Shown: positions 30,946 through 61,831 of the stretch, one piece after another
How the letters are laid out: every line of letters begins with the position of its first letter
How positions within the stretch are numbered: position 1 is the stretch's first letter
Source: a virus
Taxonomy: Duplodnaviria > Heunggongvirae > Uroviricota > Caudoviricetes
Direction: 5' to 3' (one strand)
IMG/VR virus record: IMGVR_UViG_3300034102_002845
Length of the DNA: 64,000 nt
Position numbers and translations under genes: made by a program
Notes under the pieces: generated by a model
Databases searched by the model: none
Told to the model about the DNA's origin: nothing
Seen by the model: only the letters and a program-made list of their open reading frames with translations

Positions 30946-31004
30946 TTTGCCTTCGGGGTTCCCTCAAGGGTAACAACTTTCCAGGGCACGAACCTTGGTC
31001 ACAA

Positions 31005-31076: not shown

Positions 31077-31115
31077 TCTTCCCTTCACAGGGTAGAAATG
31101 CGATAGCATTTTCGA

Positions 31116-31165
31116 AGATGATTCAGCGATTCACAAATTTCTTTTTGGTAGAAAAACAATCATCT
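31116..31165 (+). ncRNA. 50-nt repeated structured element, copy 2
   Basis: near-identical to copy 3. Confidence 0.75.
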
Positions 31166-31284
31166 TGTTTAACCCACGGTTACAAGCTTCGGAACTGACT
31201 TAGAAAGTGGTGCCGACACTGCTCACAGTTTTAACTGAAGAGTTAAGTCAATCTCCTTGACCGTGGCGGGTAAACGGTCTATAA

Positions 31285-31356
31285 CGGAATGTAGCTCAGA
31301 GGGAGAGCGCTCGTCTGGGGGGCGAGAAGTCGTCGGTTCGATCCCGGCCATTCCGA
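31285..31356 (+). tRNA. trnP: tRNA-Pro(GGG)
   Basis: C1-G72; loop CTGGGGG. Confidence 0.85.
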
Positions 31357-31530
31357 TACCAACCGCAATGGGCCCTATGCGGTTGGGTTCGCCGAGCAAG
31401 TGACGAAAATCCCTAAATTCACCGATCTTGAAAGTAGTTGGATTTAGCATAGGGAAACTAACAAACTTGCAACTGGTAGAGCAATTTGCCCCTAGTAGGG
31501 TAAAACACCTAAGTTACACGCTTAGCGCAA

Positions 31531-31603
31531 GGGGCCATAGCTCAATTGGTAGAGCACCTGTTTTGCAAGCAGGGGGTATGGGGATCGTAACCCCATGGTT
31601 CCA
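31531..31603 (+). tRNA. trnA: tRNA-Ala(TGC), T loop ATCGTAA
   Basis: G3.U70; loop TTTGCAA. Confidence 0.8.
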
Positions 31604-31663
31604 CTCGGGGAATACCCCACCCGGTCTGTCCGTCCGGGTCTATATAAGACGAAACGGCTCTAA

Positions 31664-31735
31664 CCGGGGGTAGCTCAGAGGAAGAGCACTGGTTTTGGGA
31701 ACCAGAAGTCGGGATTTCGAAATTCCCCTCTCGGA
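31664..31735 (+). tRNA. trnP: tRNA-Pro(TGG)
   Basis: CTGGT-TTTGGGA-ACCAG. Confidence 0.85.
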
Positions 31736-31757
31736 CTGTTTTGCGAATGCAAAACTA

Positions 31758-31806
31758 AGATGATTCAGCGATTCACAATTTCTTTTTGGTAGAAAAACAA
31801 TCATCT
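31758..31806 (+). ncRNA. 50-nt repeated structured element, copy 3
   Basis: near-identical to copy 2. Confidence 0.75.
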
Positions 31807-31839
31807 TGTACAACCTTTGAGTCACAGCTCAAAGTAAAA

Positions 31840-31922
31840 GGGTGTGTGCCCGAGCGGTCGAAGGGAACCGGCTGTAACCCGGTTTGTTATGCACACGTAG
31901 GTTCGAATCCTTACCACACCCA
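31840..31922 (+). tRNA. trnY: tRNA-Tyr(GTA)
   Basis: loop CTGTAAC; long variable arm. Confidence 0.9.
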
Positions 31923-31967
31923 TTGTTTTGCTAGCGCAAACCCCCCCGTAAACCACGGTACTCTAAA

Positions 31968-32546
31968 ATGAGTCACGACGAAGACTATGAGTTTGAAAAA
32001 GCCTATTGGGGCGACTGTTGCAATACTTACGACGAAGAAACGAAGCAGTTTGTCTACGGGAGACTAATGGGATTGCGTCAGACTCACTACGGTTTTGACG
32101 TGGCCGGAAAGAGAGTCCTTGATATTGGGGGTGGCCCGAGTAGTCTTCTCCTAAAAGCTGTAAACCTATCTGAAGGAAAAGTTGTAGACCCGATTGCCTA
32201 CCCCCAATGGACCGTTGACCGGTACGAGACTAAAAACATCTCGGTTTCGGTTTCGCTGGGGGAAGACATTGAAGAGGAAGGGTGGGACGAGGTATGGATG
32301 TACAATTGCCTCCAGCACACCGTAGACCCTGCAAAGATCATTCGTAACGCCCTGAGAGCCGCACCGATTTTCCGAATTTTCGAATGGGTAGACGTCCCGG
32401 CCCACGAAGGCCACCCTCACAAACTCACCGAAGTTTCTCTGAATGAGTGGATAGGCCAGCTAGGTTGCACCGCCAATCTGTCCGAGTTCGGGTGCTACGG
32501 ACGAGCCTACTACGGGTGTTTTCAAACTCGTTGCCCTAACCCTTAG
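31968..32546 (+). CDS. class I SAM-dependent methyltransferase
   Basis: RVLDIGGG motif I; WDEVWMYNCLQH. Confidence 0.8.
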   Translation: MSHDEDYEFEKAYWGDCCNTYDEETKQFVYGRLMGLRQTHYGFDVAGKRVLDIGGGPSSLLLKAVNLSEGKVVDPIAYPQWTVDRYETKNISVSVSLGEDIEEEGWDEVWMYNCLQHTVDPAKIIRNALRAAPIFRIFEWVDVPAHEGHPHKLTEVSLNEWIGQLGCTANLSEFGCYGRAYYGCFQTRCPNP

Positions 32547-32861
32547 ATAGCAAGGTTAACCAAATCGCCCTAGGGCGGTTTACCGCCCTTGCACCGACGG
32601 TTTCCACCCTTGTTTCTGCGGGACAGAAACGCTATAGTAGTTAGGTTGGAACCAAAGCACCATGGACCCCCCTGAACCAAAACCTTAGTCTGACCGACCG
32701 TGTCTGGCGGTTTGCCGCAGATCACGTTGACCCAGACCCCTTAATTCAGGCTAGATTCCTATCCCTTGTCTCAGCTCTCCTGGACGCAGGGATCGAGTCA
32801 GGACGCGAAGCTGAACCCGTGGGTTAACACCCCACCCACCCCTTGACCCTTAGAGCCAACG

Positions 32862-33062
32862 ATGAAAATCAAAGCAATCACCCCTATGGGTACTTTCCTC
32901 TCTGTAGAGCTTCACATAACGGACCTCAAAAGACACTGTCTCGAAGAGACGTTGACTACGAAGATGAAAGATCTTAAGTTCTTCAACTTTGTTACTGATG
33001 AGGGTCCGACCTATTTGGGTACGGACGTGATTCAAAACTCCGTTTTTGTCCTCCTGGGTTGA
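32862..33062 (+). CDS. hypothetical protein
   Basis: ORF. Confidence 0.45.
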   Translation: MKIKAITPMGTFLSVELHITDLKRHCLEETLTTKMKDLKFFNFVTDEGPTYLGTDVIQNSVFVLLG

Positions 33063-33174
33063 AAGCGATAGGGCACAGGTTTCACTAACGTAAAACACTT
33101 AGAGTCCCACACCCTTAGAGGTGGTGACCACCTTGACTCCCTGAGACTTCTTCATGAAGATCTTCCAAATAAAC

Positions 33175-33246
33175 ACTCGGTTAGCTCAGCGGTAGAGCGC
33201 CCTCCTTACAAGTGGGATGTCGCCGGTTCAATCCCGGCACCGAGTA
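33175..33246 (+). tRNA. trnV: tRNA-Val(TAC)
   Basis: loop CTTACAA. Confidence 0.9.
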
Positions 33247-33332
33247 TTTGGAGCCTTCCTTGAAAAGATCGCTCCTTCGCATCCCAGGTATGAAGCCACC
33301 ATACCAACCCCCTGGACTTAAATCCACGGCAA

Positions 33333-33403
33333 GCCCCTATAGCTCAGTGGCAGAGTGCCTCTTTGGTAAGGAGGAGACGCGAGTTCAACTCTCGCTGGGG
33401 GCT
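33333..33403 (+). tRNA. trnT: tRNA-Thr(GGT)
   Basis: loop TTGGTAA. Confidence 0.9.
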
Positions 33404-33408
33404 TTTCT

Positions 33409-33792
33409 TTGAGTGCGAGTATTTGTATGGATCCCTCACGAGCCTTGCTCCTTGTGACTTTGCTCCTTGTCAAGCACTTTGTTGTGGACTGGTTGTTGCA
33501 AACAGACGACGAGGTGAAGCACAAGGGCACCTACCTCCATCCCAATGGAATACAGCACTCGGCGAAGCACGCACTTGCAACAATGCTCGTGTTCCTTCCC
33601 TTCTTCCCTCCTGAGTCTATCTTCTTAGGGTTGATTGACGGTGTGCTACATTATCACATTGACTGGCTAAAGCAAAATCTTGCTCGAACCCTAAGGCTCT
33701 CACCAACCAACAAGGAGTTCTGGGTGCTCATCGGCATTGACCAGCTTCTTCACCAACTCACTTACTTGGCCTTGGTCTTTTCACAGATTTAA
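33409..33792 (+). CDS. DUF3307-like membrane protein
   Basis: KHFVVDWLLQ...HYHIDW.K...IGIDQLLH. Confidence 0.75.
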   Translation: MSASICMDPSRALLLVTLLLVKHFVVDWLLQTDDEVKHKGTYLHPNGIQHSAKHALATMLVFLPFFPPESIFLGLIDGVLHYHIDWLKQNLARTLRLSPTNKEFWVLIGIDQLLHQLTYLALVFSQI

Positions 33793-33918
33793 CGCCATAG
33801 GAGTCCTGCAGAAGCTGAAAGAGTTTGTAATTTCCCGTTCGGTTGAAGGCGGTTAACCGCCCAGCCTTGGCCGGTTCCCCGGCTTGTTTCTACCCCGCAG
33901 AAACGGTATAGTAAGTGC

Positions 33919-34086
33919 ATGGAAGAAACCACCAAGCAACAAATCCTCCGACTCATTCAGTCGGAGAAGGAAGCCCGGTCCAAGGCACTGTCCGGTCAGA
34001 TGGGAACCAAACAAGCCTACGGCTTCATCGCCGGTTACACGGAGTCAATCCTTGCTCAGATAGAGCAATTGCTCACGGAGCCTTGA
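33919..34086 (+). CDS. 55-aa hypothetical protein (probably leaderless; not in ORF track)
   Basis: ATGGAA 6 nt after TATAGT; MEETTKQQILRL... Confidence 0.5.
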   Translation: MEETTKQQILRLIQSEKEARSKALSGQMGTKQAYGFIAGYTESILAQIEQLLTEP

Positions 34087-34154
34087 GGTTTAGACGGGTT
34101 ACCTCCCCCGTAAACCCGCTAAGGTTGAACCAGGGGGAAACAACCCCGAAGCAC

Positions 34155-34228
34155 GTTCCAGTCGCCAAGTGGTTAAGGCGCGGGCCTGCAAAGTCCGTAT
34201 TTCGTCGGTTCGACTCCGACCTGGAACT
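34155..34228 (+). tRNA. trnC: tRNA-Cys(GCA)
   Basis: loop CTGCAAA; U73. Confidence 0.9.
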
Positions 34229-34275
34229 TTCCCCTCAAAGGGAATCCAACGCCATCTCTCTACTCCCAGAATACA

Positions 34276-34722
34276 ATGAAACAACTAACTTTCTCAACTG
34301 GTTCCCAAGTTGAAGCTCAGTTCGGTGCCCCGACCCTTGCCCGTCGAAAAACTTTGGTGCAAAAACGTGAGACGTCCGGTAGGGAGGTTTTCTCTTTTCC
34401 TTGGGGAGAATTAGAAGCGGTACAAGGAGTGGACTACGTACTCACACCACTCGATGGCACCGATTCGTACCCTTGCAAGATTGACATCTTTGCAGATAGC
34501 TGGGAAGAGACTGTGCCGAATTCGGGAGTGTATCGGCGCAAGGCTCTGGCCAAAATTGTCCAAGTGCCGCTAGGCTTCGAGATCACCCTTGAGACCCTTG
34601 AAGGTGACACGAAAGTGTACCACCCTGACTATATTGCGATTGGGGTTACGGACGAGGTTTATAGCAACGGGAAAGAGTGGGTCGATGCCAATCTTGACAT
34701 CCTCTCTCAAACTTGCATCTGA
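34276..34722 (+). CDS. PGDYG-like hypothetical protein
   Basis: GVDYVL...YPCKIDIF..S; TLEG....PDYIAIG. Confidence 0.55.
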   Translation: MKQLTFSTGSQVEAQFGAPTLARRKTLVQKRETSGREVFSFPWGELEAVQGVDYVLTPLDGTDSYPCKIDIFADSWEETVPNSGVYRRKALAKIVQVPLGFEITLETLEGDTKVYHPDYIAIGVTDEVYSNGKEWVDANLDILSQTCI

Positions 34723-35034
34723 CACGACGCTTAAGGCTTCCAGGGTAGCCCGTCAAAGCTACCCTTAAACTAAAACCGATTAACAACGTGGAAACCCCAA
34801 ACCCAAGATTTCATCCCCGCCACACCGTTCGGGAGTGGATGTTAGAATCCCGACATGGTTAAGGTAGAATTGATTGGCAGCGCTGCTCCTGGATTGCCGC
34901 AAGGCGTTATCTGCGCAAGTTTCAACGCAGGCTGATTTGATTGACTCTTTCACCGTGGCTCACTTGAAAACCCACCGCACTAAGTAGAATGTCACGCTAC
35001 CCAAGCCCCACACCCCAACTCACTGCATTGGCGC

Positions 35035-35274
35035 ATGGTACCGATTTCTGAGAAAACAAGGACTAGACTACTAAAAGAAAGTCAGTCTTGGTTAGACTAT
35101 CATGGGACAGCTGCAGTTGAAAAGGTGGTAGCCAACTATCCGCGTGTTTGCCCTGATTTCATAAGGAAACACGCTCTGGTAATGAGAGCAATACACGACT
35201 TACCCGCCGAAATTGACAGGTTTAATAGGTTCAACTGGTGCCTTAAAACCCCTAACTGCGTGACCCCTGTTTAA
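35035..35274 (+). CDS. hypothetical protein
   Basis: ORF. Confidence 0.4.
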   Translation: MVPISEKTRTRLLKESQSWLDYHGTAAVEKVVANYPRVCPDFIRKHALVMRAIHDLPAEIDRFNRFNWCLKTPNCVTPV

Positions 35275-35602
35275 ATTCGAACTGCCCACGGCCCACTCAG
35301 AAGGCTCCGGCACTGGAGCTAAAGAGCTAGCCGACGAGTACCAGGCTGCGTACCGGGCGATTAACTGGGCCTGCGAGGCTCTGGCAGTCACCACCTGTGA
35401 CGCTAGGGACTTTCACTCAGAGTGTGCCTGGAAGCAAGCCCAGCTTGACCGAGATGATATGTTCAGCAAGTTGACTGAGTTGCAGCATTACACCGCGTCT
35501 TGGATGTGCCGGGTTTGCTCAACCCCGACTTGCGGACCCCTCACCAGCGTCAGTATCGCTGAGTAGCCTAAACAACACACTCGTTTCATTCTAACTCAAC
35601 CC

Positions 35603-35842
35603 ATGCCTAAGTTCGAAGTCATTCTCCCCTGTACAATGAGCGTCCATATGATTGTGGACGCCGTAGACAGAGAGGACGCCGTAGACAAAGCGTTAGAGGT
35701 ACCCTTTATCTGTAAAATAGATGGCGATGAGGGGAAGAGTGTAAGCGTATGGGAGTTTGAAGCACACAGGGAAGTTGTAAAAGGTAATGTTTTCTACGGC
35801 GTACAAAATGAGCCGGAGGTGACTTTGGCCGAGCACGACTGA
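35603..35842 (+). CDS. hypothetical protein
   Basis: MPKFEV...V.AVDREDAVDKA phage motif. Confidence 0.55.
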   Translation: MPKFEVILPCTMSVHMIVDAVDREDAVDKALEVPFICKIDGDEGKSVSVWEFEAHREVVKGNVFYGVQNEPEVTLAEHD

Positions 35843-36186
35843 GGTCCCTGTCGCAAGGTTACACTAAAGTGGGCGGTTTACCGAACCTAAACCGACGGTT
35901 TCCACCCTTGTTTCTGCAGCGCAGAAACGGTATAGTTACTTCATTGAAGCCCCGCCCATGACCCCAGCCACTCTTCCTCCCGTCGCTCGCGAGATCGAAG
36001 CCCAAATCCTTAAGGGGTGCGGCTCAAGGGTTGAGTAGTTCTTTCGCAGTGGCGACGCCTACACCCTTGTGGGATCCTCCGACGCTGTCCGTGCAGCTAC
36101 ATCCTTTTGCGTATCCAACAGACTAGCCAAGCTGACTGAGGAAATTCACTATAACAAAGAAACGGAAGAGGCATACGGATACTTAG

Positions 36187-36921
36187 TTGCAGCTTGACCG
36201 AAAACCTGAAACCCCACCCCCCAAGCGAACCATGTTTGACCCCAACAGCATCACCCCTCCAGCGGAGTATGTTGACTACATTGCAAATAACACACATCGC
36301 AATACGATTCAGTCCGCAGCCTTCTGGGCCCAATGGGGAGCAGCCAAGGCTGTTGAAGAACTGAGGCATCAAATGCCAACGGATGGCATTCGGGACAGGC
36401 CTCCGACTGAGGCAGATGGGGACCTTTATAAGGGGCAGGTGCAGATTCTTGAGTACGGGTACTGGAGAAACACCCACTGGACGTCCGTTGCTTCAAACCA
36501 CTGCGGAGCACTCAAGACTGACGGAGACAGGCCCGATTTATTGCCATGGCTTCACACACCCAGCTGGCGTCCGAAGCCAGAGCTCACGCCTAACGAGCGT
36601 GCGCTGGCGCTGCTAAAAGGAGTACGTGACCAGTTTACCGATGAGGAGTTCACCCTTCTTACAAGGGTTGTGGAGTCTGCGCCCGTTAAAACTACTCCCG
36701 CCACACCCTTAACCATTGGAAACCACGTAGTTAAGCCCGGAGATATCTTGACTCTTCGCAACAATAAGGCCATCACCGTCCACCAGGTAGTCTGGGGCGA
36801 CGATCTGTGGCAAGTTTCATACAGAGTTCAGCCCCTTGGCGAGACACTCGGCTGCGTATCCGTTTATGCCAATGGCATTAACCCCTTTTACAGAGAGTTA
36901 GATATTCTTGCAGTCAAGTAG
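36187..36921 (+). CDS. hypothetical protein
   Basis: 244-aa ORF. Confidence 0.55.
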   Translation: MQLDRKPETPPPKRTMFDPNSITPPAEYVDYIANNTHRNTIQSAAFWAQWGAAKAVEELRHQMPTDGIRDRPPTEADGDLYKGQVQILEYGYWRNTHWTSVASNHCGALKTDGDRPDLLPWLHTPSWRPKPELTPNERALALLKGVRDQFTDEEFTLLTRVVESAPVKTTPATPLTIGNHVVKPGDILTLRNNKAITVHQVVWGDDLWQVSYRVQPLGETLGCVSVYANGINPFYRELDILAVK

Positions 36922-36931
36922 GTGACTACCC

Positions 36932-37222
36932 TTGTCTGAGCCAACCACTGACACATTTAACGCCGATTGGGCATCACCACCCGGTGAATTGATCGGGGTG
37001 GTCCTTGAGGAACTCGGCTGGACCCGCGCCGAGCTGGCCCAGCGGCTGGATTTCAGTGCCGAAGGCGTTGATGACCTTTTAAATGGGCGCACAGCGATCA
37101 CGGGGGCTACGGCTGAGGCTCTTGCAAACGTCCTCGGGCACACGGCGGGCTTTTGGCTGCGGCTTGAGTCAAACTATCAGAACGACCTGGTGCGCATTTC
37201 GCCGTCGAAAATCTTGCTTTAG
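36932..37222 (+). CDS. HigA-family (Xre HTH) antitoxin-like protein
   Basis: SPPGE.I...LEE.G.T.AELA.RL......LLNG...IT...A..LA.VLG....FWL.LE.NY. Confidence 0.8.
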   Translation: MSEPTTDTFNADWASPPGELIGVVLEELGWTRAELAQRLDFSAEGVDDLLNGRTAITGATAEALANVLGHTAGFWLRLESNYQNDLVRISPSKILL

Positions 37223-37337
37223 GGCGGTTTCCACCCCTTGCCCTGGGGCGGTTTCCCCGTTTGTTTTCCAGAAGGAAAACGCTATAGTTGCTCCAGGGAA
37301 AGCACCACCCAACTCATAAAAACCACTGAAGCCCTGT

Positions 37338-37580
37338 ATGAAAACAACACTGAAACAACTCGTTGACCAGGGATTTGTCTTCGATAAAGCTCCACGTAGT
37401 GACGAAAACCGTATTTTCCGGAACACACGGGACGGTAATCTTTATCAGGTGTTCCTTGTAACACCGCATTTGCACACTGGGGGCTACCTGGCAGCCCAGC
37501 GTATGTTTTTTGCGAATGGGGATCCCAAAGCGATCCCGGAGTCTCGGCTCAAAGACTACGTTGTTGTTGCTCATCGGTAA
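37338..37580 (+). CDS. hypothetical protein
   Basis: after promoter. Confidence 0.55.
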   Translation: MKTTLKQLVDQGFVFDKAPRSDENRIFRNTRDGNLYQVFLVTPHLHTGGYLAAQRMFFANGDPKAIPESRLKDYVVVAHR

Positions 37581-37615
37581 CTTAAGTGAACAATCCCCTC
37601 GCAACGAAATAGAAT

Positions 37616-38035
37616 ATGGTCGTTGACCCTAATGACACCCCTACGAGTCTCGTAAAAGTCCAAGAGATTATCGAAGGAAAAAATACCGTAGTTCAACAAG
37701 TTCTAAACACACCCCTTTGGGTTTTGACTGCAGAACTACCACCCTTACAAAAGGGGGACTACGTCCTCGCCACCAAGTACGACGACGGCGACCCCTGTGA
37801 TCAGTTCTGTGTGGGCATTTACCGTAACCCTCTCACTCAGTACACCAGCCTTAGACACGACATCGTGGACTCGGATGGTAATCTTTTTCGGGGGAACGGC
37901 TTTCGGCGTGCAGAGGTTATAACTCAGGAAGAAGGGAGTGCCCTTATCGCGTTGTTCCCGGAAATAAGTGATAAGCCTGGGAAATCTCTATGGTGGCACC
38001 TTGATACAATCCGAGGCGTGCCCAACCCCCTATGA
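37616..38035 (+). CDS. hypothetical protein
   Basis: GDYVLATKY.DGDP.D..CVG phage motif. Confidence 0.6.
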   Translation: MVVDPNDTPTSLVKVQEIIEGKNTVVQQVLNTPLWVLTAELPPLQKGDYVLATKYDDGDPCDQFCVGIYRNPLTQYTSLRHDIVDSDGNLFRGNGFRRAEVITQEEGSALIALFPEISDKPGKSLWWHLDTIRGVPNPL

Positions 38036-38062
38036 CCCTTGTGAGAACCTAGACGAGTAGCC

Positions 38063-38479
38063 ATGACAGACACACAACCGAAGACAACCCCGGAAACATT
38101 TTGCATCTGGCTTCAAGGCTTCTTAGATGGAGCTGGCAGTGAACTTACATCCAACCAGCTTTCTGCCTTAAAGGAAAAGCTCCACACAGTTTTCTCTCAT
38201 TTTAACCCAGACACAGACTCCCGCACCAGCGACACAGTATCGGAGGAACTTCGCAGAGTCTACGACGAGTACTTAAGAGACAGGGAGAAGAAAGTCCCTC
38301 TTTCGCCCTTCGTACCCTCTCCGTGGTCGCCGCAAGCCCCGGTTCAAATCCCCATTCCGTATAACCCTTACAGGCACCCTGGTATCGAACCCTGGAACCC
38401 CCACAAGGTTTATACGGGGCCAGCTGTAACACAAACGTTGACTGACGCACAGCTTCACCGAAACTTCACATCTCGCTAA
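38063..38479 (+). CDS. hypothetical protein (F..WLQGF family)
   Basis: motif shared with 39691 and 39943. Confidence 0.6.
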   Translation: MTDTQPKTTPETFCIWLQGFLDGAGSELTSNQLSALKEKLHTVFSHFNPDTDSRTSDTVSEELRRVYDEYLRDREKKVPLSPFVPSPWSPQAPVQIPIPYNPYRHPGIEPWNPHKVYTGPAVTQTLTDAQLHRNFTSR

Positions 38480-38488
38480 TACAATAAA

Positions 38489-39658
38489 ATGGGCAGCTGG
38501 AACAAAACTTGTGGTCTATCCAACCTTCACATTCATGCTGGGCAACCCGTCTATGTGTTTATCCTTGAGGAAAATGTAAATAAGGGTGACTTTTGCTATT
38601 CTAGCTGCCTTTACACACCGTGTCTTGTGCCGTTCACCAGCGTGTACGACGATTACGGTGGCGGAGAGAACTCCTCTGGCATTAGCCTTCCCTACCTCCT
38701 CGATGGCTTACGAAAGAACCTCGTTGAGCTTGAAGTTGGGGCGAATAGCTACCACGACATCACCGTGAAGCGCGAAGAGTTCGACATTGATAAGTTCTTC
38801 GAGTCCTGTCACGAAGACCGCCTTCAAGTTTCCAGCCACAGGGGCAATAGGCCAGTGAAATTTACGATGATGCGCAAAGACGTTGTAGACGGGGTCCTGA
38901 ACCGCTTCTCGTTATACAACTACCAAGATTCAAAGTCTTACACTTACCGTGACTGTTTAGAACAGCTTGGGGCGGTGTCTGAGAAAATTGAAAAGGCTTT
39001 CAACGACCGGAATAACGGGTATGGGCCAACCTGGGTAGTTTCCGCAAAATTCCCCGAGTTGCACAAAATCAAGTATATCTTAGACTGGTCAGGCTCGTTG
39101 TTTACAGAGCAATTACTGTCTGGGCTGTTTAGTGGCAACAGGACGGCTTCATCGTTAAATGTTGATGATATTGTCTTTAGTATTGCAACAGCAGCGAGCC
39201 TTAGCCAGGGAGAAAGACTGTGCAACCTGAAAGAGTTTCTCTCAGACTGCCTAAAGGGTATTGTCCTTGACACTTTCATGGACAAGACACGAAAGCTGTG
39301 GACTCCAGGGGGACACGAGGGTAGCCAGAACACTGACTTGGACGGACACAAGATTCTTCTCTCAGTTGTCCAAGATGTTGTTCGCACCGAAGAAGACAAA
39401 ACAGAAAGGGAGGAGTGGCCCCTGTATGACCAAGAATCTTTGCTCAGCCCTACAACTCCATGCAACCACTTTGAGGTAAGAATGAGCGTCGAACTCGCAC
39501 AAGAGTTTCACGAGATTCAGGAAATTACTGGACTGAATGCGGCTGAAGTGTTTCGTCGCGCCATTGCTATCTACAAAATTGCAAAGGAGGCTGTGAAAAA
39601 CGGCGAACAAGTCATTCTCAGGTCCGAAGAGAGGGAGAGGTGGCTCACTTCAATCTAA
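38489..39658 (+). CDS. conserved phage protein with C-terminal RHH-like domain
   Basis: MGSWNKTCGLS N-terminus; FEVRMSVELAQEF.EI.E.TGLN.AEVFRRAI tail. Confidence 0.65.
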   Translation: MGSWNKTCGLSNLHIHAGQPVYVFILEENVNKGDFCYSSCLYTPCLVPFTSVYDDYGGGENSSGISLPYLLDGLRKNLVELEVGANSYHDITVKREEFDIDKFFESCHEDRLQVSSHRGNRPVKFTMMRKDVVDGVLNRFSLYNYQDSKSYTYRDCLEQLGAVSEKIEKAFNDRNNGYGPTWVVSAKFPELHKIKYILDWSGSLFTEQLLSGLFSGNRTASSLNVDDIVFSIATAASLSQGERLCNLKEFLSDCLKGIVLDTFMDKTRKLWTPGGHEGSQNTDLDGHKILLSVVQDVVRTEEDKTEREEWPLYDQESLLSPTTPCNHFEVRMSVELAQEFHEIQEITGLNAAEVFRRAIAIYKIAKEAVKNGEQVILRSEERERWLTSI

Positions 39659-39690
39659 CTTCTTTACTTCACTCACATCTTTCATACAAA

Positions 39691-39903
39691 ATGAACAAAG
39701 ACGAATTTTCAACTTGGCTCCAGGGGTTCATCCTTGGTGTCACAGGTGTAGAACTGAATGAAAACCAAGTAAGTCTCATCAAAGGTAACCTGAACAAGGT
39801 GAAGTCTGACACGGCCAATACCCCCGTTACAGAGACACTCACAGGTACGACCCCGTGGCGTCCTGGCGGCACCGGCCCGAACGGTGAAATTTACCGCTGC
39901 TGA
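39691..39903 (+). CDS. hypothetical protein (F..WLQGF family)
   Basis: motif. Confidence 0.55.
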   Translation: MNKDEFSTWLQGFILGVTGVELNENQVSLIKGNLNKVKSDTANTPVTETLTGTTPWRPGGTGPNGEIYRC

Positions 39904-39942
39904 TTTGATCCCTTACACAACTCACCCTAACACCTAATTAAA

Positions 39943-40266
39943 GTGAAATCACGCGACTTTTGCTACTGGCTTCAAGGATTCTTCGAGCTTGCCGAACCGG
40001 TCACACTCACACCGACGCAAGTTGAAACGATCCAAAACCACTTGAGTATGGTTTTCTACCACGAGATTGACCCTTCCTTTAGTGGTCCGAAAGAACAAGA
40101 AGCCCTAAATAGGCTTCACTCACCAAATATACACTCGGTTAGCTCAGCGGTAGAGCGCCCTCCTTACAAGTGGGGGGTGCCACAGAGTGAATCCACGTGT
40201 CCAGAGTCGGGGCACCATACGGCGCACGGAGAAGATCGTACATCGACCACCAGGATTAAATGTTGA
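39943..40266 (+). CDS. hypothetical protein (F..WLQGF family) containing an embedded tRNA-Val fragment
   Basis: motif; 40131-40174 identical to 33173-33216. Confidence 0.65.
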   Translation: MKSRDFCYWLQGFFELAEPVTLTPTQVETIQNHLSMVFYHEIDPSFSGPKEQEALNRLHSPNIHSVSSAVERPPYKWGVPQSESTCPESGHHTAHGEDRTSTTRIKC

Positions 40267-40273
40267 GCAAACA

Positions 40274-40462
40274 ATGACACTCCTCGACCCACCCACTCTG
40301 GCAGAAATAACCCGTATCGCCAGCGAGATTGCTGATGAAAAAAATAATGCGGCACGAACGCAGAGTCGGTTGGGTAAGTGGTCTCATTGGCGTTGCGTTC
40401 GTGGGTGGAATTGTACACTCTATTTGGCTCCTGAAGCAGCTCAGTGCGTTTACGAGTCTTAG
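40274..40462 (+). CDS. hypothetical protein
   Basis: ORF. Confidence 0.45.
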   Translation: MTLLDPPTLAEITRIASEIADEKNNAARTQSRLGKWSHWRCVRGWNCTLYLAPEAAQCVYES

Positions 40463-40513
40463 CTGAGGGTACAATAAATCTTTGCTTAAAACCCCGCCAC
40501 ACGGCGGGAACAA

Positions 40514-40585
40514 GGCTGTATAGTTCAGCGGTAGAACAGCTCTTTCATACGGAGTGGGTCGCAGGTTCGATTCCTGCTACAGCTT
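40514..40585 (+). tRNA. tRNA-Met/Ile2(CAT)
   Basis: GCTCT-TTCATAC-GGAGT. Confidence 0.85.
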
Positions 40586-40624
40586 TTACGGATGATTTCT
40601 AGGTAAGAGGGTAAATTTGTAAGA

Positions 40625-41434
40625 GTGCCCCCTTCCATGCAAAGTTCTTTTTCTTACGAAAGTTTTCGAAAACTCTCGCAACTTTTACCTGAGGGGTACA
40701 CGCTCGACTTCGCACGTTGTGTGAGGAAAGACGGCACTGCGTACGGAACATCGGGAAAGTGCCGTAAAGGCGTAGAGCAGGTGAAGGAAGTCCTGCGCAG
40801 GGCGGTGAAGAGGTCCGACGAGGAGAAACAGGAACAAGAGTACGAAGATCGCTGGTGGGCCAAACAGATTAACGAAAAGCTAGTTGATGAGCCCGAAAGA
40901 CGAGATATTGCTATCAAGAGGTTTAACCTAAATCGTGACAAGGCCAACAACATACGAAACTTAGACGATGGGTCCACAGTTGTCGTGTCGAACCAGACTT
41001 TTGTCTCCTTAAAGAGAAGACTGAACGACTTTGACGAAGTTTCCCTAAAATTCAAGGGGAACACGAAGGAAGTTGATTTTCTTGTAAATGGGGAGTACGA
41101 CTACGGGAGTATAGAAGACCCTCGCGACAAAGTCAAAGCGGCACTCACCGTAAGACGTATGTTTGGGCTCCTCACGCAGTCTCTTACCCCAGGCGAGGTC
41201 ATTCATTGTTACGCCTACGACGAGGACGGCAGAGGAGACAAACGCAAGAAAGCCTACGAGCGAATAGGATTTGTGGACAAAGGAGACGGACAATTGGTTG
41301 GCCAGGTTCGCAAAGGTGGTGGCGTTGAGCCGCCGCACTCCTTCTCCGAGAACCTTGGAAGTTTGAAAGACTGGTACGTTGTTCTATTCGGGGAGCTTCC
41401 CTCAAGGGGGACACCGAAGGATCACCTTGGTTGA
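40625..41434 (+). CDS. protein with C.R.DG..YGT.G.CRKG motif and possible GNAT-like C-terminus
   Basis: motif shared with 22440; DGRGDKRKKAYERIGF. Confidence 0.65.
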   Translation: MPPSMQSSFSYESFRKLSQLLPEGYTLDFARCVRKDGTAYGTSGKCRKGVEQVKEVLRRAVKRSDEEKQEQEYEDRWWAKQINEKLVDEPERRDIAIKRFNLNRDKANNIRNLDDGSTVVVSNQTFVSLKRRLNDFDEVSLKFKGNTKEVDFLVNGEYDYGSIEDPRDKVKAALTVRRMFGLLTQSLTPGEVIHCYAYDEDGRGDKRKKAYERIGFVDKGDGQLVGQVRKGGGVEPPHSFSENLGSLKDWYVVLFGELPSRGTPKDHLG

Positions 41435-41486
41435 GATTAAGCTTGCACACCTGCAAACACCCTGACACACTCTTCAACATAGTCGA

Positions 41487-41735
41487 ATGAAAAAGACCAC
41501 AGGAAAGTACGACCACTCAACCGCCGAGGGGCAAAAGCGAATGATGGCGGAGTCGATGGGCAGATTCTACTCCCCCCCCCCCAAACCAATAACCGCATGG
41601 AAGCCAGGTGACCCTGACTATGGGGCTGACCCTATCGGTGATGGTACCCATCGTATGGTTCCCTCTGGTGACATTGTTTCTCTTGAGGAAAGGTGCAGAA
41701 GGCTTGCACGCCTACAAAACCTATCAGAATCCTGA
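41487..41735 (+). CDS. hypothetical protein
   Basis: DYGADPIGDG..RMVPSG motif. Confidence 0.5.
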   Translation: MKKTTGKYDHSTAEGQKRMMAESMGRFYSPPPKPITAWKPGDPDYGADPIGDGTHRMVPSGDIVSLEERCRRLARLQNLSES

Positions 41736-41897
41736 CACCCTAAAGAAGCATGGCAAAACCTGAGTCAAAACAGGAGTCAATCCTGCTGTGGCAGCGAGGA
41801 AAGCGTAGGTGGAAGAGCCACCTGCGGTCTCTACCCTACATAAAAAGACAGATATCTCGCACTCGACGACGTCTAGCAAGGAGGGCTTTACGGACCC

Positions 41898-42158
41898 TTG
41901 AATAGGCTATACTGCGCCGTACACCTGCCCCAGGTCACTATGGACTTTGACAACCCTCATACCCCAGAAATCCCACGTCCTCCCGCACCGGACAGCATCA
42001 TTAGTTATGAGCTTGTCCCCGGTGACTCACGTTTAGGCAGCGACTCGTACATTCTTGCAGTGGATCAGGGCGGTTCTCTTTGGCTCTGCTTTCACCTACG
42101 GGGCACTCGGCGCTCCGACGTCCCCTCCCTGTCTCACAACTGGCAACGACTAAACTAG
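41898..42158 (+). CDS. hypothetical protein
   Basis: ORF. Confidence 0.4.
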   Translation: MNRLYCAVHLPQVTMDFDNPHTPEIPRPPAPDSIISYELVPGDSRLGSDSYILAVDQGGSLWLCFHLRGTRRSDVPSLSHNWQRLN

Positions 42159-42230
42159 GGCGGTTTACCCTCCTTCTCGGGGGCGGTTTACCCCTTGTCT
42201 CTGCGGGGGTAGAAACGGTATAGTTAGTTC

Positions 42231-42527
42231 ATGGAAAACAACCTCAGCCTCAGCCCCGCCCAGATCACCGCCATCGAAGAAACTCTTGCGAGTATGACTC
42301 GCGGTTTCGAGAAACGCCCCTTAGTAGACTCTTTGCTCCTGACACTGTTCCCCGAGCAAGACCCTAAGTTCCTGAGGAGCTGGGGCTCACTCAGATACAC
42401 TCATCTGAAAGTGACAGCGTTTCCTGAACGCCAGCTCTGGATCCTAAAGAATATGGTTGAGGGGGTTATTTCAGGGGCTGCCCAGGACTGGTACAAGGGC
42501 TACCTTGAAGAGTACCCCGGTGCATAA
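42231..42527 (+). CDS. hypothetical protein (probably leaderless)
   Basis: ATG 6 nt after TATAGT. Confidence 0.6.
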   Translation: MENNLSLSPAQITAIEETLASMTRGFEKRPLVDSLLLTLFPEQDPKFLRSWGSLRYTHLKVTAFPERQLWILKNMVEGVISGAAQDWYKGYLEEYPGA

Positions 42528-42581
42528 CGCACTTGGCTAAAACCAAGCAGGTGTGGCCCCGTGTAGCCCACTCCTGAGCAA

Positions 42582-42654
42582 GCCGGCATAGTTCAGCGGA
42601 CAGAACGCGAGCCTTCTAAGCTTGATGTCGGGGGTTCAAATCCCTCTGCCGGTG
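42582..42654 (+). tRNA. trnR: tRNA-Arg(TCT)
   Basis: loop CTTCTAA. Confidence 0.9.
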
Positions 42655-42674
42655 TTAACCAACCTTACAAAACA

Positions 42675-43019
42675 ATGCAAGACCGCGAAACCCACCTGCG
42701 TGGAGTTGCCGCATGGAAATTCGCCTACGCTCAGCTCAGCGAGCGTCAGCGCACTCGTAAAATGGAAATCAAGGACTCTCAGAGAAGCATCGAAGATCTT
42801 CCTGTGTTCTCCTACGTCTGGCCGCAAGAACGCCAAGACGAGTGGAACCTTAAGTACGGACGTTCCTACGGCTCCTACACCAGCTACCATTCTAAGCTTC
42901 AGCTCGCCGTTAACGACGTTGCCCTTCAAGCACAGGCGATGCTTCGAATCCGCTCTGAAATGAGGGCTCAAGCGGGTCGGGACACTTCCTTAGTTCCTAC
43001 CGTTGCAGTTGCTTCCTGA
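42675..43019 (+). CDS. hypothetical protein
   Basis: ORF. Confidence 0.6.
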   Translation: MQDRETHLRGVAAWKFAYAQLSERQRTRKMEIKDSQRSIEDLPVFSYVWPQERQDEWNLKYGRSYGSYTSYHSKLQLAVNDVALQAQAMLRIRSEMRAQAGRDTSLVPTVAVAS

Positions 43020-43128
43020 GTAGCTTCGGGGGTGAGAGGGCGGTAAACCGTTTCATTTGGGACGGTTTCCCCGCTTGTTTCTGCACCGAAGAAACGGTAT
43101 GATTAATTCAGTCGAGCCACTCGAAACA

Positions 43129-43662
43129 ATGACCAACCCCAGCCAAATTTCTGACGAAGAAACCACTCAAACAGTTGCCCAGTGGGCAGCTAGTAAAGAC
43201 CGAGCAGAACGCAAAGCTCATCTAAAGGCTGAGAAAGCTGCGCAGCAGCAAAAGGATCTTGAGGCGAATTTGGCTGCGGCGACAGCAGAGTTGCCGTGGA
43301 CCATCCTGAGCCTTATGGCTAAAGCCAGAGAGCTTAGGGTGGACCCCATCCTTGAACGAATCACCTACAGTGAGTTCGGTGAGGCTGTAACACCGGATCG
43401 ATTCTCCCTTACTCTCGACACTTCAGATCCGATGGGTGGAGGCGGTGTGAAATTCTCTCGGCGGGGGCCTCAGACACAATCGGAGCTGAGTTCCCTTGAG
43501 TCCGACCTTTGGGACGCAAAGGAGTTCCTAATCGAGGTTCAACGCTTAAAGGATGAAGAGAAGCGAGTTCGAGAACGGAAAGCCGAACTTTTAGCTTCCC
43601 TAAGCCAGGACGATCTGGAAATCCTGGGACTTGCACCCAAACCAACTACAAGTCGGTGGTGA
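43129..43662 (+). CDS. hypothetical protein
   Basis: after promoter; LLASLSQDDLEILGL tail. Confidence 0.55.
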   Translation: MTNPSQISDEETTQTVAQWAASKDRAERKAHLKAEKAAQQQKDLEANLAAATAELPWTILSLMAKARELRVDPILERITYSEFGEAVTPDRFSLTLDTSDPMGGGGVKFSRRGPQTQSELSSLESDLWDAKEFLIEVQRLKDEEKRVRERKAELLASLSQDDLEILGLAPKPTTSRW

Positions 43663-43922
43663 CGCACATGAGAAAACAAAACGTGGAATTGCACAACAAA
43701 AACGTGGCGTTGCAGAGGCAAGTTACTCTGCTACAAAATCATTGCAAAACCCTTGAGACGCTAAGGCGAATTGAGACTCTGAACGCTACAAACTTTGAAA
43801 ACTTCCTTGTTAAGAACCACTACAGGTTAGTTTTCTTGGATGGGCAAATTCACTTCCCCGTCTATCACCACCCAGGGGTAAAGGTGTGCGCCGAGGGAAG
43901 ATTTGCACGTCAAATGGGGTAG
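43656..43922 (+). CDS. hypothetical protein
   Basis: ORF. Confidence 0.4.
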   Translation: MVTHMRKQNVELHNKNVALQRQVTLLQNHCKTLETLRRIETLNATNFENFLVKNHYRLVFLDGQIHFPVYHHPGVKVCAEGRFARQMG

Positions 43923-43948
43923 TCACCCCCGGCAAATTATGCAGCCAA

Positions 43949-44022
43949 GCCTCCTTAGCTCAGCGGATTAGAGCACACGGTTTCGGCCCGTGGTGTCAGA
44001 GGTTCGAATCCTCTAGGGGGCG
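43949..44022 (+). tRNA. trnR: tRNA-Arg(TCG)
   Basis: CACGG-TTTCGGC-CCGTG. Confidence 0.9.
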
Positions 44023-44094
44023 TAACCCCATAAGGTTACCATCATACTGAGTCCGGTTTGCCCCTTGCAGGGACCATACGGGCTTAAGCCAAAA

Positions 44095-44168
44095 GCCCTG
44101 TTAGTTCAGTGGATTAGAACATCTCTTTCCTAAAGAGAATGTCGCAGGTTCAAATCCTGCACAGGGCG
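44095..44168 (+). tRNA. trnR: tRNA-Arg(CCT)
   Basis: TCTCT-TTCCTAA-AGAGA. Confidence 0.9.
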
Positions 44169-44175
44169 TTTACCC

Positions 44176-44436
44176 TTGTCCCCCCTAAGTAAGCCCACTA
44201 TAACCTCAACCCTAAACTCCGAAAACCTTGATCCCCTGGACCCTGCTCTCGCATGTTGTGCGAATGGGCCCAAACCATTAACTCTGGCCACTAGCTGTGT
44301 TATGTCTGGGACTCCTCCGTACCCTCACGAAGACTGGAATGCTTACTTTAACGATGTGGCTAAGACAGGGACTTTGGAAAATTTGCGTATAAGCGCCATT
44401 CACAACAACGGCGTAAGAAAGCCACTACTGAACTGA
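44176..44436 (+). CDS. hypothetical protein
   Basis: ORF. Confidence 0.35.
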   Translation: MSPLSKPTITSTLNSENLDPLDPALACCANGPKPLTLATSCVMSGTPPYPHEDWNAYFNDVAKTGTLENLRISAIHNNGVRKPLLN

Positions 44437-44670
44437 TTACAAACAAATGAGAAGCTTATTAGCTCTGTACCCCCTCCTCCTACTTACCGGTGTCATTTTC
44501 ATGGCCGCTGGATTTGCCATACCGGGGACAATGGGATACATTCTCGCAATGCTAGGCGGAGGAATTATTGGATTGGCGCTATTTGCTTAGGTTCGAGAGG
44601 GGGGTAGCCGCCCTAACTCGGACGGTTTCCCCGCTTTCCCTCACAGAGCAAAAGGCGGTATAGTACAAGT

Positions 44671-45063
44671 ATGGAAAACACCGCCCCTCGCCGTGGGATT
44701 CTCTGGTTGTCCAAACCGGACCAGAACTCCCCAGTTCACCCAATCTTCAGCCAAGCTGCTGAGCACTTTCACGTTACTTTGCAGTTTGGTGTGGTGGAGA
44801 ATGAGATTCCAGATGGGATCTTAGGGAGAACTTTCACAGTTCGTGCCACTGAGAACTGCTTTGGCGACCGCATTCATGCCCTGCGAGTTGAGCTTCCGAA
44901 CGGAATCCGGAGTGTTTGCTTGAACAAGCACCCTCACATGACAATTTCGATGCTTCCCGGTGTACGACCGGTTGAGTCGAATGTGATGCTTCAATCTCCA
45001 CTTTCAATTCAAAGAGAGAACTTTGGTCTTTCCCTCGTTTGCGAGTTTGTACCCTTTAACTGA
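44671..45063 (+). CDS. 2H phosphoesterase (cyclic phosphodiesterase-like), probably leaderless
   Basis: two HxT motifs: HFHVTL and HPHMTI. Confidence 0.7.
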   Translation: MENTAPRRGILWLSKPDQNSPVHPIFSQAAEHFHVTLQFGVVENEIPDGILGRTFTVRATENCFGDRIHALRVELPNGIRSVCLNKHPHMTISMLPGVRPVESNVMLQSPLSIQRENFGLSLVCEFVPFN

Positions 45064-45075
45064 GCCCTGTGACCC

Positions 45076-45318
45076 ATGAACGACTCCCCTGAATTAATCG
45101 TATCTTTTGAGGTAGTCCCCCAGAGCGTTGCAGTTTACACCACTGCGAGTGGGGATAAAGTGACTAAGGTTACGCTCGAACACGTGATTGCTCTCGACAC
45201 CAACGCAAAGCTATGGGTGAGACTAGTGGGAAATCACGAAGAGGTGGCTCCAGGAACTTTGCAGTTGTGGAGCTGTCTAAACTCACAACACAACACTCCA
45301 GCAAAAGCCCATGACTAA
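45076..45318 (+). CDS. hypothetical protein
   Basis: ORF. Confidence 0.45.
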   Translation: MNDSPELIVSFEVVPQSVAVYTTASGDKVTKVTLEHVIALDTNAKLWVRLVGNHEEVAPGTLQLWSCLNSQHNTPAKAHD

Positions 45319-45583
45319 ACAATCAGAGAACGAGTACTATGACGAACTGGAGCAGGACATGAGAGACCTTGCAGCCGAACTCGGAGTTTCTGTGAGTTGC
45401 GCTCAAGACTTGTGGTACTTGCGCACTCGTTCTCGACACACTCCGACGCTGGAAGCCGAGCTAATTGCACTTCACGCCTCAGGTACCCCTCCTCTGAATA
45501 TGTGTGACTTCGGTGTAACTGATGCCACCCAGGAAAACATTCGGAAAGTTTGTGAAAACGTCGGGAGTCTTCATGGGAACTGA
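45311..45583 (+). CDS. hypothetical protein
   Basis: YLRTRSR.T..LE.ELI.LH motif. Confidence 0.55.
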   Translation: MTKQSENEYYDELEQDMRDLAAELGVSVSCAQDLWYLRTRSRHTPTLEAELIALHASGTPPLNMCDFGVTDATQENIRKVCENVGSLHGN

Positions 45584-45763
45584 AAAAGACGGGGAAGACG
45601 CGGAACTGTTCCGATTTTGGGCGCAAGAAATGTGCTCTAACCGCAGACAGGTATCCAACGCTTTAGAGTGGTGCCGAACACCATCCGAAGTTCGAAGCGC
45701 ACTCTCGGCGATTCGTGCGCTGAACAAAGCTTGTCCAAAAAACAACACCTGAGGGATACTGTC

Positions 45764-45913
45764 ATGGCGTCAAACGTGAAAGACAACACCGTTGAGGTGC
45801 GCTTGCTGAGTGAGATCCCGTATCAAATTCCCGTAGTGAGAGAGCCCGAGTGGAAGCGAAGCGTCTACAAGCAAATTCAGGCCGAGTTTCGACTCGATCG
45901 AGAAAGATGCTAA
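45764..45913 (+). CDS. small hypothetical protein
   Basis: ORF. Confidence 0.35.
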   Translation: MASNVKDNTVEVRLLSEIPYQIPVVREPEWKRSVYKQIQAEFRLDRERC

Positions 45914-45933
45914 GGTAGGGCCGGGGAGAACCC

Positions 45934-46005
45934 ACCCACGTAGCACAGCGGTAGTGCAGCCGTTTCGTAAGCGGCAGGTCGCTGGTTCGAATCCAGTCGT
46001 GGGTT
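45934..46005 (+). tRNA. trnT: tRNA-Thr(CGT)
   Basis: GCCGT-TTCGTAA-GCGGC. Confidence 0.9.
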
Positions 46006-56697: not shown

Positions 56698-57306
56698 ATG
56701 GCTTCCACCCCTCCAACAATCCTACAAGTTAAGTCCCTGCGAGAAAAGACCGGTGCGGGCCTGATTCTCTGCAAAGAAGCACTTATTTTTTCTGACAGTG
56801 ATGAGGCCGGTGCGATCACGTGGTTGCGGCAGAGAGGAGTGGCCTTAGCCGATGGTAAGGTTGGTCGGAGCGCACGAGAAGGTACTGTGGGCAGCTACAT
56901 TCACACTGGCGGTAAGGTTGGAGTCCTTATCGAGGTGAACTGCGAAACGGATTTTGTGGCCAAATCGGAGCCTTTCCAGGAACTTGTTCGAAATCTTTCG
57001 ATGCAAATTGCAGCGTGCCCCTCTGTGTGCCACGTTTCAATCTTTGATATCCCTGAGGAGACTCTCCTTGAGGAGACTCGGATTGAGTCCGGCAAGGCAG
57101 ATCTTGCTAAGAAACCCGAAGCAATGCGAAACAAGATCGTTGAGGGTCGTGTGGCAAAGCGATTCAGAGAGCTGTCTCTCATGGACCAGCCCTACATCAA
57201 AGACAACTCAATGAGTATCGAAACATACGTGAAGAACTTCGCTGCGGTAGTTGGCGAAAACATCGTTGTGAAGCGATTCGTACGTTTTGTCCTCGGCAGC
57301 TCCTGA
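56698..57306 (+). CDS. tsf: translation elongation factor Ts (short cyanobacterial type)
   Basis: VK.LREKTGAG...CK.AL; YIHTGGKVGVLIEVNCETDFVA; L..QPYIKD; V.RFVRF.LG. Confidence 0.92.
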   Translation: MASTPPTILQVKSLREKTGAGLILCKEALIFSDSDEAGAITWLRQRGVALADGKVGRSAREGTVGSYIHTGGKVGVLIEVNCETDFVAKSEPFQELVRNLSMQIAACPSVCHVSIFDIPEETLLEETRIESGKADLAKKPEAMRNKIVEGRVAKRFRELSLMDQPYIKDNSMSIETYVKNFAAVVGENIVVKRFVRFVLGSS

Positions 57307-61499: not shown

Positions 61500-61530
61500 G
61501 CGGACAGTCCTACCATACGACTCTAAACTA

Positions 61531-61831
61531 GGGGTAGCTCTGGAAGATAGTGCCCTATACAGGGGTTCGAATCCCCTCACCTCCATTTGAGAACGTGACC
61601 GTCCCTTCTTCAACCTTCCGACTTACTGAGAAGGCAGGGTCACTGTGGGTTAAACTCCCACCTCTAGTCAAGGGGGTGCCATGGTCTCGCTAGGGTAAAG
61701 ATGTCGCCTGAGTGAAAGCCGCTTGCATAAGCACAAAATAGACGCTAACAACATCGTCAAATTCGAGAGGATTGCCGTTGCCGTTTGAGCAACCGCACTC
61801 TGACTCATAACTCGGGGGGTTTCGGCCCCCT
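61531..61831 (+). ncRNA. ssrA: two-piece (circularly permuted) tmRNA: acceptor piece ~61531-61585, intervening segment, coding piece from 61672; tag (A)ANNIVKFERIAVAV
   Basis: AGGGG-TTCGAAT-CCCCT T arm and CACCTCC-A lie upstream of GGGGGTG (G3.U70); helix TAGGGTA/TGCCCTA; tag ORF 61744-61788. Confidence 0.9.

Follow-up and report, generated by a model that had tools for sequence, protein, structure and literature searches.

tmRNA tags are the classic example of a degradation signal, and nearly all of them end in Ala-Ala. In E. coli, ClpX recognition depends mainly on the Ala-Ala-COO- end, and a change of either terminal Ala raises the KM of ClpXP and hardly alters Vmax (PMC7652416). Phages also encode tmRNAs. 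Buchholz et al. 2022 (PMC9004378) found that 402 of 18,146 phage genomes carry a tmRNA gene, with 133 unique forms including 53 two-piece forms, nearly all aquatic, and Table S1 of that study lists as "Permuted" the tmRNAs of S-CBWM1, S-CAM1, S-CAM3, S-CRM01 and S-SSM7. The 2025 tmRNA database includes 79 sequences from phages, and tmRNA-bearing huge phages have been described (PMC7162821). The published proposals for aquatic phage tmRNAs are translation maintenance or protein tagging (PMC9004378). A two-piece phage tmRNA is therefore a known and catalogued kind, and the novelty that the initial annotation of our locus saw in the two-piece form itself falls away. What is new here is the Val-ended tag, the rebuilt tag-end hairpin and the long tRNA-like spacer.

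The two-piece tmRNAs of the hosts Prochlorococcus, Synechococcus and Cyanobium (Rfam RF01851) share many features with the gene described here: the order of acceptor piece, spacer and coding piece, the G3.U70 pair, the discriminator A without an encoded CCA, 65 nt from the acceptor strand to the resume codon, a tag start of the ANNIV/ANKIV type, a UGA stop and a 3'-terminal hairpin. Unlike the hosts, our gene encodes a tag of 14 residues ending in AVAV rather than 16 residues ending in PVAA, has a shifted tag-end helix with the last codon and the stop in the loop, is ~25 nt shorter after the tag, and falls on a separate, phage-only branch.

The nearest isolate is the Synechococcus phage S-CBWM1 (Aokuangvirus, MG450654), with 77.6% identity over 30% of the query. 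It has in common with our locus the blocks around helix P2 and the small hairpin, the acceptor stem GGGGGUG/CACCUCC, a large tRNA array nearby and the lack of SmpB, whereas its tag (ANKIVAFHRQAVSCA by ARAGORN) ends in Cys-Ala and its spacer is 17 nt long. The GenBank record of S-CBWM1 has no tmRNA annotated in the examined stretch where ARAGORN finds a permuted tmRNA. OM43 phage Melnitz, the pelagimyophages and T4-like cyanophages (S-CAM3) likewise carry permuted tmRNAs without a phage SmpB (PMC9004378). The Melnitz-type genes differ from ours in their alphaproteobacterial lineage and their glutamine riboswitch (PMC9004378), and the marine T4-like cyanophages in having 77-85 nt before the tag (65 in hosts) and tags of the types ..STVAA, ..ELATA and ..ELVTA. 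Among the marine T4-like sequences from IMG/VR (L185-L247, of which L212 is S-CAM3), many tags have 21-24 residues (..ILTREFARTDELVTA and similar) and a Thr-Ala end. The mycobacteriophage tmRNAs (Bxz1 group) are also phage-encoded, but are one-piece, and the DS6A RNA consists of the tRNA-like domain only, has no tag frame and acts as an inhibitor (PMC4131195).

Gene identification and anatomy

We analyzed a stretch of 64,000 nt, henceforth referred to as the window. ARAGORN called a permuted tmRNA at 61496-61879 (+) with the tag ANNIVKFERIAVAV followed by a stop codon. The Rfam model RF04321 (tmRNA_permuted) matched 61530-61788 with 68.1 bits against a gathering score of 47 (E 5.6e-11 over the entire window), and model positions 1-213 were fully covered. 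ARAGORN and a covariance model, which the initial annotation had named among the ways to check its reading, thus both call the gene. The host model RF01851 (cyano_tmRNA) aligned over 61505-61830 with 58 bits, under its cut-off of 70, whereas host genes score about 280-326 bits. These results support the identity of the locus as a phage-borne, cyanobacterial-type two-piece tmRNA, and the gene is real and, judged from the sequence, probably functional. Our main reading, to which we assign a probability of roughly 70%, is a working phage-encoded two-piece tmRNA of the picocyanobacterial type in a ~277-kb freshwater cyanophage that also encodes 43 tRNAs and EF-Ts.

Base reading confirmed the described arrangement, in which an acceptor piece (T arm, CACCTCC-A and no CCA) lies ahead of the spacer and is followed by the coding piece, and the 86-nt spacer, the GGGGGTG strand and G3.U70 are all present as first described (Table 1). 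CCA is not encoded, since the discriminator A61585 is followed by TTT. The features within the originally claimed span of 61531-61831 stand, but the gene start does not: it lies near 61500, ~30 nt farther upstream, where the 5' hairpin and the 5' strands of P2 sit. The gene had also been described as more compact than the host versions. This holds for the mature RNA and not for the whole gene, which the 86-nt spacer makes longer than most host genes. Within the RF01851 limits and without the spacer, the length is ~240 nt in the window, ~251 nt in a relative with the same tag ending (L013) and 268-277 nt in hosts. The 65 nt ahead of the tag equal the host value, and the shortening comprises 6 nt of tag and about 25 nt downstream of the tag.

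Table 1. Features of the two-piece tmRNA gene and translation-related genes in the window
Feature	Position	Strand	Basis or remark
Array of 43 tRNA genes	16693..46005	+	ARAGORN, Rfam
Elongation factor Ts	56698..57306	+	Pfam PF00889, 103.4 bits; 4 kb upstream of tmRNA
Acceptor piece	61500..61585	+	ARAGORN start 61496, RF01851 alignment start 61505, RNAalifold compensatory pairs
5' hairpin of acceptor piece	61506-61522	+	RNAalifold consensus
Helix P2, 5' strands	61531-61542 and 61551-61557	+	Acceptor piece
T arm AGGGG-UUCGAAU-CCCCU	61561-61577	+	Adjoins acceptor 3' strand; stem covaries
Acceptor 3' strand CACCUCC	61578-61584	+	Base reading
Discriminator A	61585	+	Base reading
Intervening segment, 86 nt	61586..61671	+	Predicted to be removed during maturation
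Spacer closing stem GAG/CUC	61589-91 with 61662-64	+	Fold
Spacer long hairpin, 14-nt loop	61595-61643	+	Fold
Spacer T-arm-like hairpin GUGGG-UUAAACU-CCCAC, 5 bp, 7-nt loop	61645-61661	+	Fold
Coding piece	61672..61830	+	Rfam alignments, acceptor-stem table, RNAalifold
Acceptor 5' strand GGGGGUG	61672-61678	+	G3 opposite U61582 = G3.U70
Helix P2, 3' strands	61691-61697 and 61708-61720	+	Coding piece
Small hairpin GCUUGCAUAAGC, invariant	61721-61732	+	Coding piece
Tag frame ANNIVKFERIAVAV	61744..61788	+	Resume codon GCU (Ala), last codon GUU 61783-85, stop UGA 61786-88
Tag-end hairpin, stem GUUGC/GCAAC, loop C-GUU-UGA	61777..61793	+	RNAalifold
3'-terminal G+C hairpin GGGGGG-UUUC-GGCCCCC	61814..61830	+	Last RF01851 helix; kept in relatives

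Structural conservation and covariation

The 7-bp acceptor stem is fully paired, and G3.U70 and the discriminator A are invariant in ~117 of the ~117 phage and host genes compared. Acceptor-stem pairs 4-7 are compensated across relatives, and pair 5 occurs as G-C, C-G, A-U or U-A. The RNAalifold consensus of 10 relatives has 60 pairs, 24 of which show double compensatory changes. The pairs cover the 5' hairpin, the two P2 segments between the pieces, the T arm, the acceptor stem, the tag-end hairpin and the terminal hairpin, and compensatory changes occur in the acceptor stem, the T arm, P2 and the 5' hairpin. The small hairpin GCUUGCAUAAGC occupies the site of the RF01851 hairpin upstream of the resume codon; it is invariant, and thus carries no covariation signal.

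The tag-end stem pairs 61777-81 with 61789-93 (RNAalifold columns 307-311 with 319-323). It covaries only at the pair of the Val12 wobble base (UA, CG, AU, GC), and the other four pairs are fixed on the coding side, which is the pattern that a joint constraint on RNA and peptide would predict. The last Val codon and the stop of the window tag sit in the loop of this hairpin. We consider the element rebuilt in the phage, because the RF01851 host consensus places the last tag codons in the 3' strand of a helix.

Three copies from the window's own clade (L007 1360-1669, L008 552-862 and L014 72-382) have the T loop GGCAGUA instead of UUCGAAU. These copies retain intact stems, G3.U70 and an intact tag, and both ARAGORN and Rfam call them nonetheless.

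Relatives and selection on the tag peptide

Pattern scans of IMG/VR retrieved ~90 viral contigs with cyanobacterial-type permuted tmRNAs, several of which were missed by ARAGORN and found by Rfam. One of the scans demanded Ala-Val at codons 11-12 and therefore favored the AVA[A/V] groups; the other scans left the ending free. The window belongs to a group of ~12 IMG/VR contigs of up to 279 kb with tags of the form AN[N/K]IVKFER[I/T]AVAV. This group, henceforth referred to as the AVAV clade, comprises the window, L003, L004, L005 (the same virus as G001), L007, L008, L010 and L013-L018. The nearest record to the window is G001, a 277-kb IMG/VR virus that is 98% complete by CheckV and has the same tmRNA and tag. 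The sister group (L009, L011 and L012) has the tag ANNIVAFERVAVAA. On L011, an AVAA-group contig, an Rfam abiF motif (2356-2407 (-), 37.5 bits, gathering score 37) lies directly upstream of the tmRNA.

Within the AVAV clade, the tag codons have undergone at least 8 synonymous changes (codons 2, 6, 7, 11, 12 and 13) and minimally 2 non-synonymous changes (N/K at codon 3 and I/T at codon 10). By chance, 77% of changes should be non-synonymous; the probability of this outcome is then 2.5e-4, and this codon count shows that purifying selection acts on the tag peptide. All copies in the clade use GTT as the last Val codon. Because this codon shares its loop with the stop, the invariance of GTT cannot be put down to constraint on the peptide only. 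The related ..LATV group uses GTT, GTC and GTA for its final Val.

Tag endings in phages and their hosts

We searched 121 genomes of the picocyanobacterial family with RF01851 and ran ARAGORN on 32 of them. The model scored above its cut-off in 104 of the 121 genomes, with nearly all scores at ~280-326 bits. The 32 host tags have 16 residues and the form ANNIVRFSRQxAPVAA (ANNIVRFSRQAAPVAA served as the host comparison tag). All 32 end in VAA and stop at UGA, and none of the 32 genes encodes CCA; the stop codon and the lack of CCA are as in the phage gene.

The phage tags are different. Among the 86 viral contigs with complete tags, 32 end in Val (AV in 22, TV in 7 and LV in 3), 29 in Ala-Ala, 22 in Thr-Ala, and one each in Pro-Ala, Val-Ala and Cys-Ala. 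The window tag ends in Ala-Val and lacks the C-terminal Ala-Ala of the ssrA-type ClpXP degron (PMC7652416). The initial annotation had pointed to a non-canonical AVAV end, set against the Ala-Ala of hosts; with VAA in 32 of 32 hosts and AVAV kept in ~12 related viral contigs, the contrast is stronger than was assumed there. Literature searches on how phage tmRNA tags end yielded no publication on this topic.

The phage-specific block GTGAAAGCNGCTTGCATAAGCACAAAA had no exact match in 185,579 bacterial species genomes, and thus no sampled host carries the window-type form. A second tmRNA-like copy occurs in three host genomes (G011, G018 and G041), and in none of the three does it end in Val. 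The second copies in G011 and G018 look degenerate. The one in G041 is a compact permuted tmRNA-like gene that occurs besides the normal one (L172, about 1960-2260 (-), corresponding to G041:C1:926930-927148), scores 65.9 bits with RF01851 and 61.6 bits with RF04321, has the tag ANNIKRTERTLAIAA with an AA end, and is followed by a hairpin and a T run.

Origin of the phage copies

A maximum-likelihood tree placed all phage sequences on one side of a branch and the 32 hosts on the other (SH-aLRT 100), and the same branch was recovered with the tag columns left out (SH-aLRT 99). Because the phage copies form a separate branch (SH-aLRT 99-100), a recent capture of a host gene is ruled out. S-CBWM1 forms a long branch that is sister to the AVAV/VVAV clade. 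On this tree, 4-5 changes are required to account for the Val ending, at least three of which are forced by well-supported branches; the deeper branching order is unsure because the searches were quick and the RNAs are short.

tmRNA genes are common attachment sites. The locus could accordingly be imagined as a non-functional remnant, either of an integration site or of a host tmRNA that was once captured, and the RF01851 score under the gathering score, together with the outcome of simple scans for promoter-like and terminator-like sites (see below), would fit such a relic. This reading was already disfavored, and we give it almost no weight: both halves are complete, every helix covaries, the gene is conserved over contigs of 65-279 kb, the phage copies make up a long-lived phage-only branch, and the locus is present in six lake metatranscriptome libraries.

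The intervening spacer

Unlike the host spacers of 6-46 nt, the spacer of the window measures 86 nt and is tRNA-like in layout. A second AVAV-clade member, L017, has a spacer of 82 nt, and most phage relatives have 5-13 nt. A dedicated scan for spacers of 36-66 nt found none. The window spacer folds with -26.8 kcal/mol (z -1.97), and the z-scores of the two long spacers are modest, at -2.0 for the window and -2.5 for L017. The L017 spacer has the same architecture, with a 5-bp hairpin of GUGGG-UUAGAAU-CCCAC, and in both spacers the 3' strand of the closing stem follows immediately after the 5-bp hairpin. The letters of the long stem differ between the window and L017, and the pairing is kept.

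This modeled layout resembles a tRNA without a D arm; since it comes from two lineages only, we treat the resemblance as a lead and not as a result. As a D-armless tRNA mimic, the 86-nt spacer would recruit tRNA-processing enzymes to free both pieces. We also considered other identities for the spacer. A mobile repeat was rejected, as no second copy was found inside the window. A small gene was rejected as well, as the L017 counterpart has the same fold and, by eye, no common start codon or reading frame.

Proposed mechanism and the fate of tagged proteins

Starting from the observed gene anatomy, base-pair covariation, selection on the peptide and phage-specific Val ending, we propose the following course of events. 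A single precursor would be transcribed from the gene. Host tRNA-processing enzymes would excise the structured 86-nt spacer, with an RNase P cut at G61672, and a 3' nuclease and a CCA-adding enzyme would act after A61585. The two pieces would be held together by the acceptor stem and helix P2 and charged by the host AlaRS via G3.U70. With host SmpB and EF-Tu, the RNA would enter ribosomes stalled on broken mRNAs during infection. Translation would restart at GCU 61744 and stop at UGA 61786, which would free the ribosome and leave the tag on the product.

SmpB (PF01668) had no match in the 98%-complete G001 or in S-CBWM1, and ClpP (PF00574) had none in G001. The function of the tmRNA would therefore depend on the host SmpB accepting a diverged tRNA-like domain, the host protein standing in as it does for other phages. 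The need to draw on the host pool also allows for a decoy, in which the phage RNA titrates host SmpB, EF-Tu or AlaRS and thereby suppresses host tagging and ClpXP destruction, its own tagging being secondary. There is a precedent in the tRNA-like-domain-only tmRNA of DS6A, which inhibits tmRNA in E. coli (PMC4131195, PMC11915505). A pure decoy would not need a tag, however, and every copy has an intact tag frame that is under purifying selection, with a conserved resume codon and stop. We therefore regard a decoy as highly improbable.

What would the Val ending do? When C-terminal pentapeptides were screened, 91% of the top 100 degrons contained Ala-Ala, and the final position of the selected degrons showed a ~40% depletion of Val and Leu (PMC10862746). 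Engineered ssrA variants with AAV and ASV ends (Andersen 1998, cited in PMC2860132) resemble the window tag in that a C-terminal Val replaces the final Ala. They differ from it in being laboratory forms of the E. coli tag, and no natural phage tag is among the variants as presented in PMC2860132. In Synechocystis, EYFP levels were progressively lower with ASV, AAV and LVA tags, as in E. coli, and the AAV and ASV tags were still degraded in both organisms, less efficiently than LVA (PMC2860132). By analogy, these published data argue for a quantitative weakening over a loss of degradation: the Val end is most likely a weaker degron and not a dead one, and any change in the fate of tagged proteins may be small. 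The corresponding proposal for the phage tag, that the Val end increases the KM of the ClpXP-type host protease and that rescued products would thus be destroyed more slowly or by another route, has in our estimate slightly less than an even chance of being correct.

The ending could instead be neutral, with the RNA serving in rescue only, Ala or Val being equally good or irrelevant, and Val marking a lineage. The phage endings are very diverse (AA, TA, AV, TV, LV, VA, PA and CA), a spread that could reflect loose constraint. The tree has 4-5 switches between Ala and Val, which is how a character under weak constraint would behave; the AAV and ASV tags are still degrons in Synechocystis; and the final GTT, which lies in a loop and never varies in the AVAV clade, could be held by RNA constraint alone. 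Against neutrality, the hosts are invariant (32 of 32 end in VAA), which means that this position is constrained in the same cells; each phage clade keeps its ending despite synonymous turnover; and in E. coli both terminal Ala matter for KM, with Val depleted at the last position of degrons. On balance, we consider a neutral ending unlikely, while allowing it a real share of the probability.

More broadly, an old phage-only tmRNA lineage may have repeatedly swapped the host Ala-Ala for Ala-Val, Thr-Val, Leu-Val or Thr-Ala, which would uncouple rescue from ClpXP destruction or redirect the products to another protease ("rescue without destroy"), with the 86-nt spacer as a D-armless tRNA mimic. 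This combined scenario is speculative, and we think it more probably wrong than right. Its interest lies in the comparison that it suggests. The same proteases read host and phage tags, the hosts in our sample all have Ala-Ala and two thirds of the phage copies do not, so that the contrast in endings is a natural experiment on the purpose of the tag. If the Val end slows or redirects proteolysis, phages would be shown to adjust protein quality control besides the supply of ribosomes, and the phage tags would be natural graded degrons for picocyanobacteria.

Genome context and expression

The locus occurs in sequencing runs of lake and freshwater metagenomes. Six metatranscriptome libraries, all from lakes, contained roughly half the words of the interval 61400-62000. 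In the four runs that we compared with the window, the contigs from RNA libraries carry a G001-like allele, cover the gene at a depth of 3-5, and are all unbroken through the spacer and past 61830. In three of these runs the contigs start at 61499, 61504 and 61517, and in one of the four the contig starts upstream of the gene. The starts at 61499-61517 are a weak hint at the 5' end of the RNA. The contigs are compatible with a precursor starting at the gene edge and could also be contaminating DNA. Pattern scans gave no promoter-like site and no terminator at the gene end, and did not classify the 3' hairpin as a terminator; such scans are uninformative for a phage with its own promoters.

In the window, ARAGORN calls an 85-nt "tRNA-Stop" with the anticodon UUA at 26419-26503 (+), which the Rfam tRNA model scores at only 31.4 bits. 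We considered that UAA might be avoided in the phage tag due to a tRNA with the anticodon UUA, and this was ruled out by the 32 of 32 host tags that stop at UGA too. A tRNA-Ser(UGA) at 27636-27724 (+) scores 53.2 with the Rfam tRNA-Sec model (gathering score 47), probably due to its long extra arm.

Several protein-coding genes surround the tmRNA. An RlaP-type nucleotidyltransferase of an "RNA repair pathway" family (58158-59300 (+); PF10127, 67.9 bits; phrog_388, E 1.4e-50) may bear on RNA repair or 3'-end addition, a role at the 3' end being considered because no tmRNA copy encodes CCA. It is followed by a DUF5662 protein at 59297-59809. An ADP-ribosylglycohydrolase (63386-64000 (+), running past the window end; PF03747, 128 bits) may reverse a host ADP-ribosylating defense. 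Farther upstream are a radical-SAM protein (54516-55430 (+); PF04055, 32 bits) and a 558-aa protein (49556-51232 (+)) with a C-terminal PAP2 domain (31.5 bits), which an earlier sequence-only reading had taken for a vanadium haloperoxidase.
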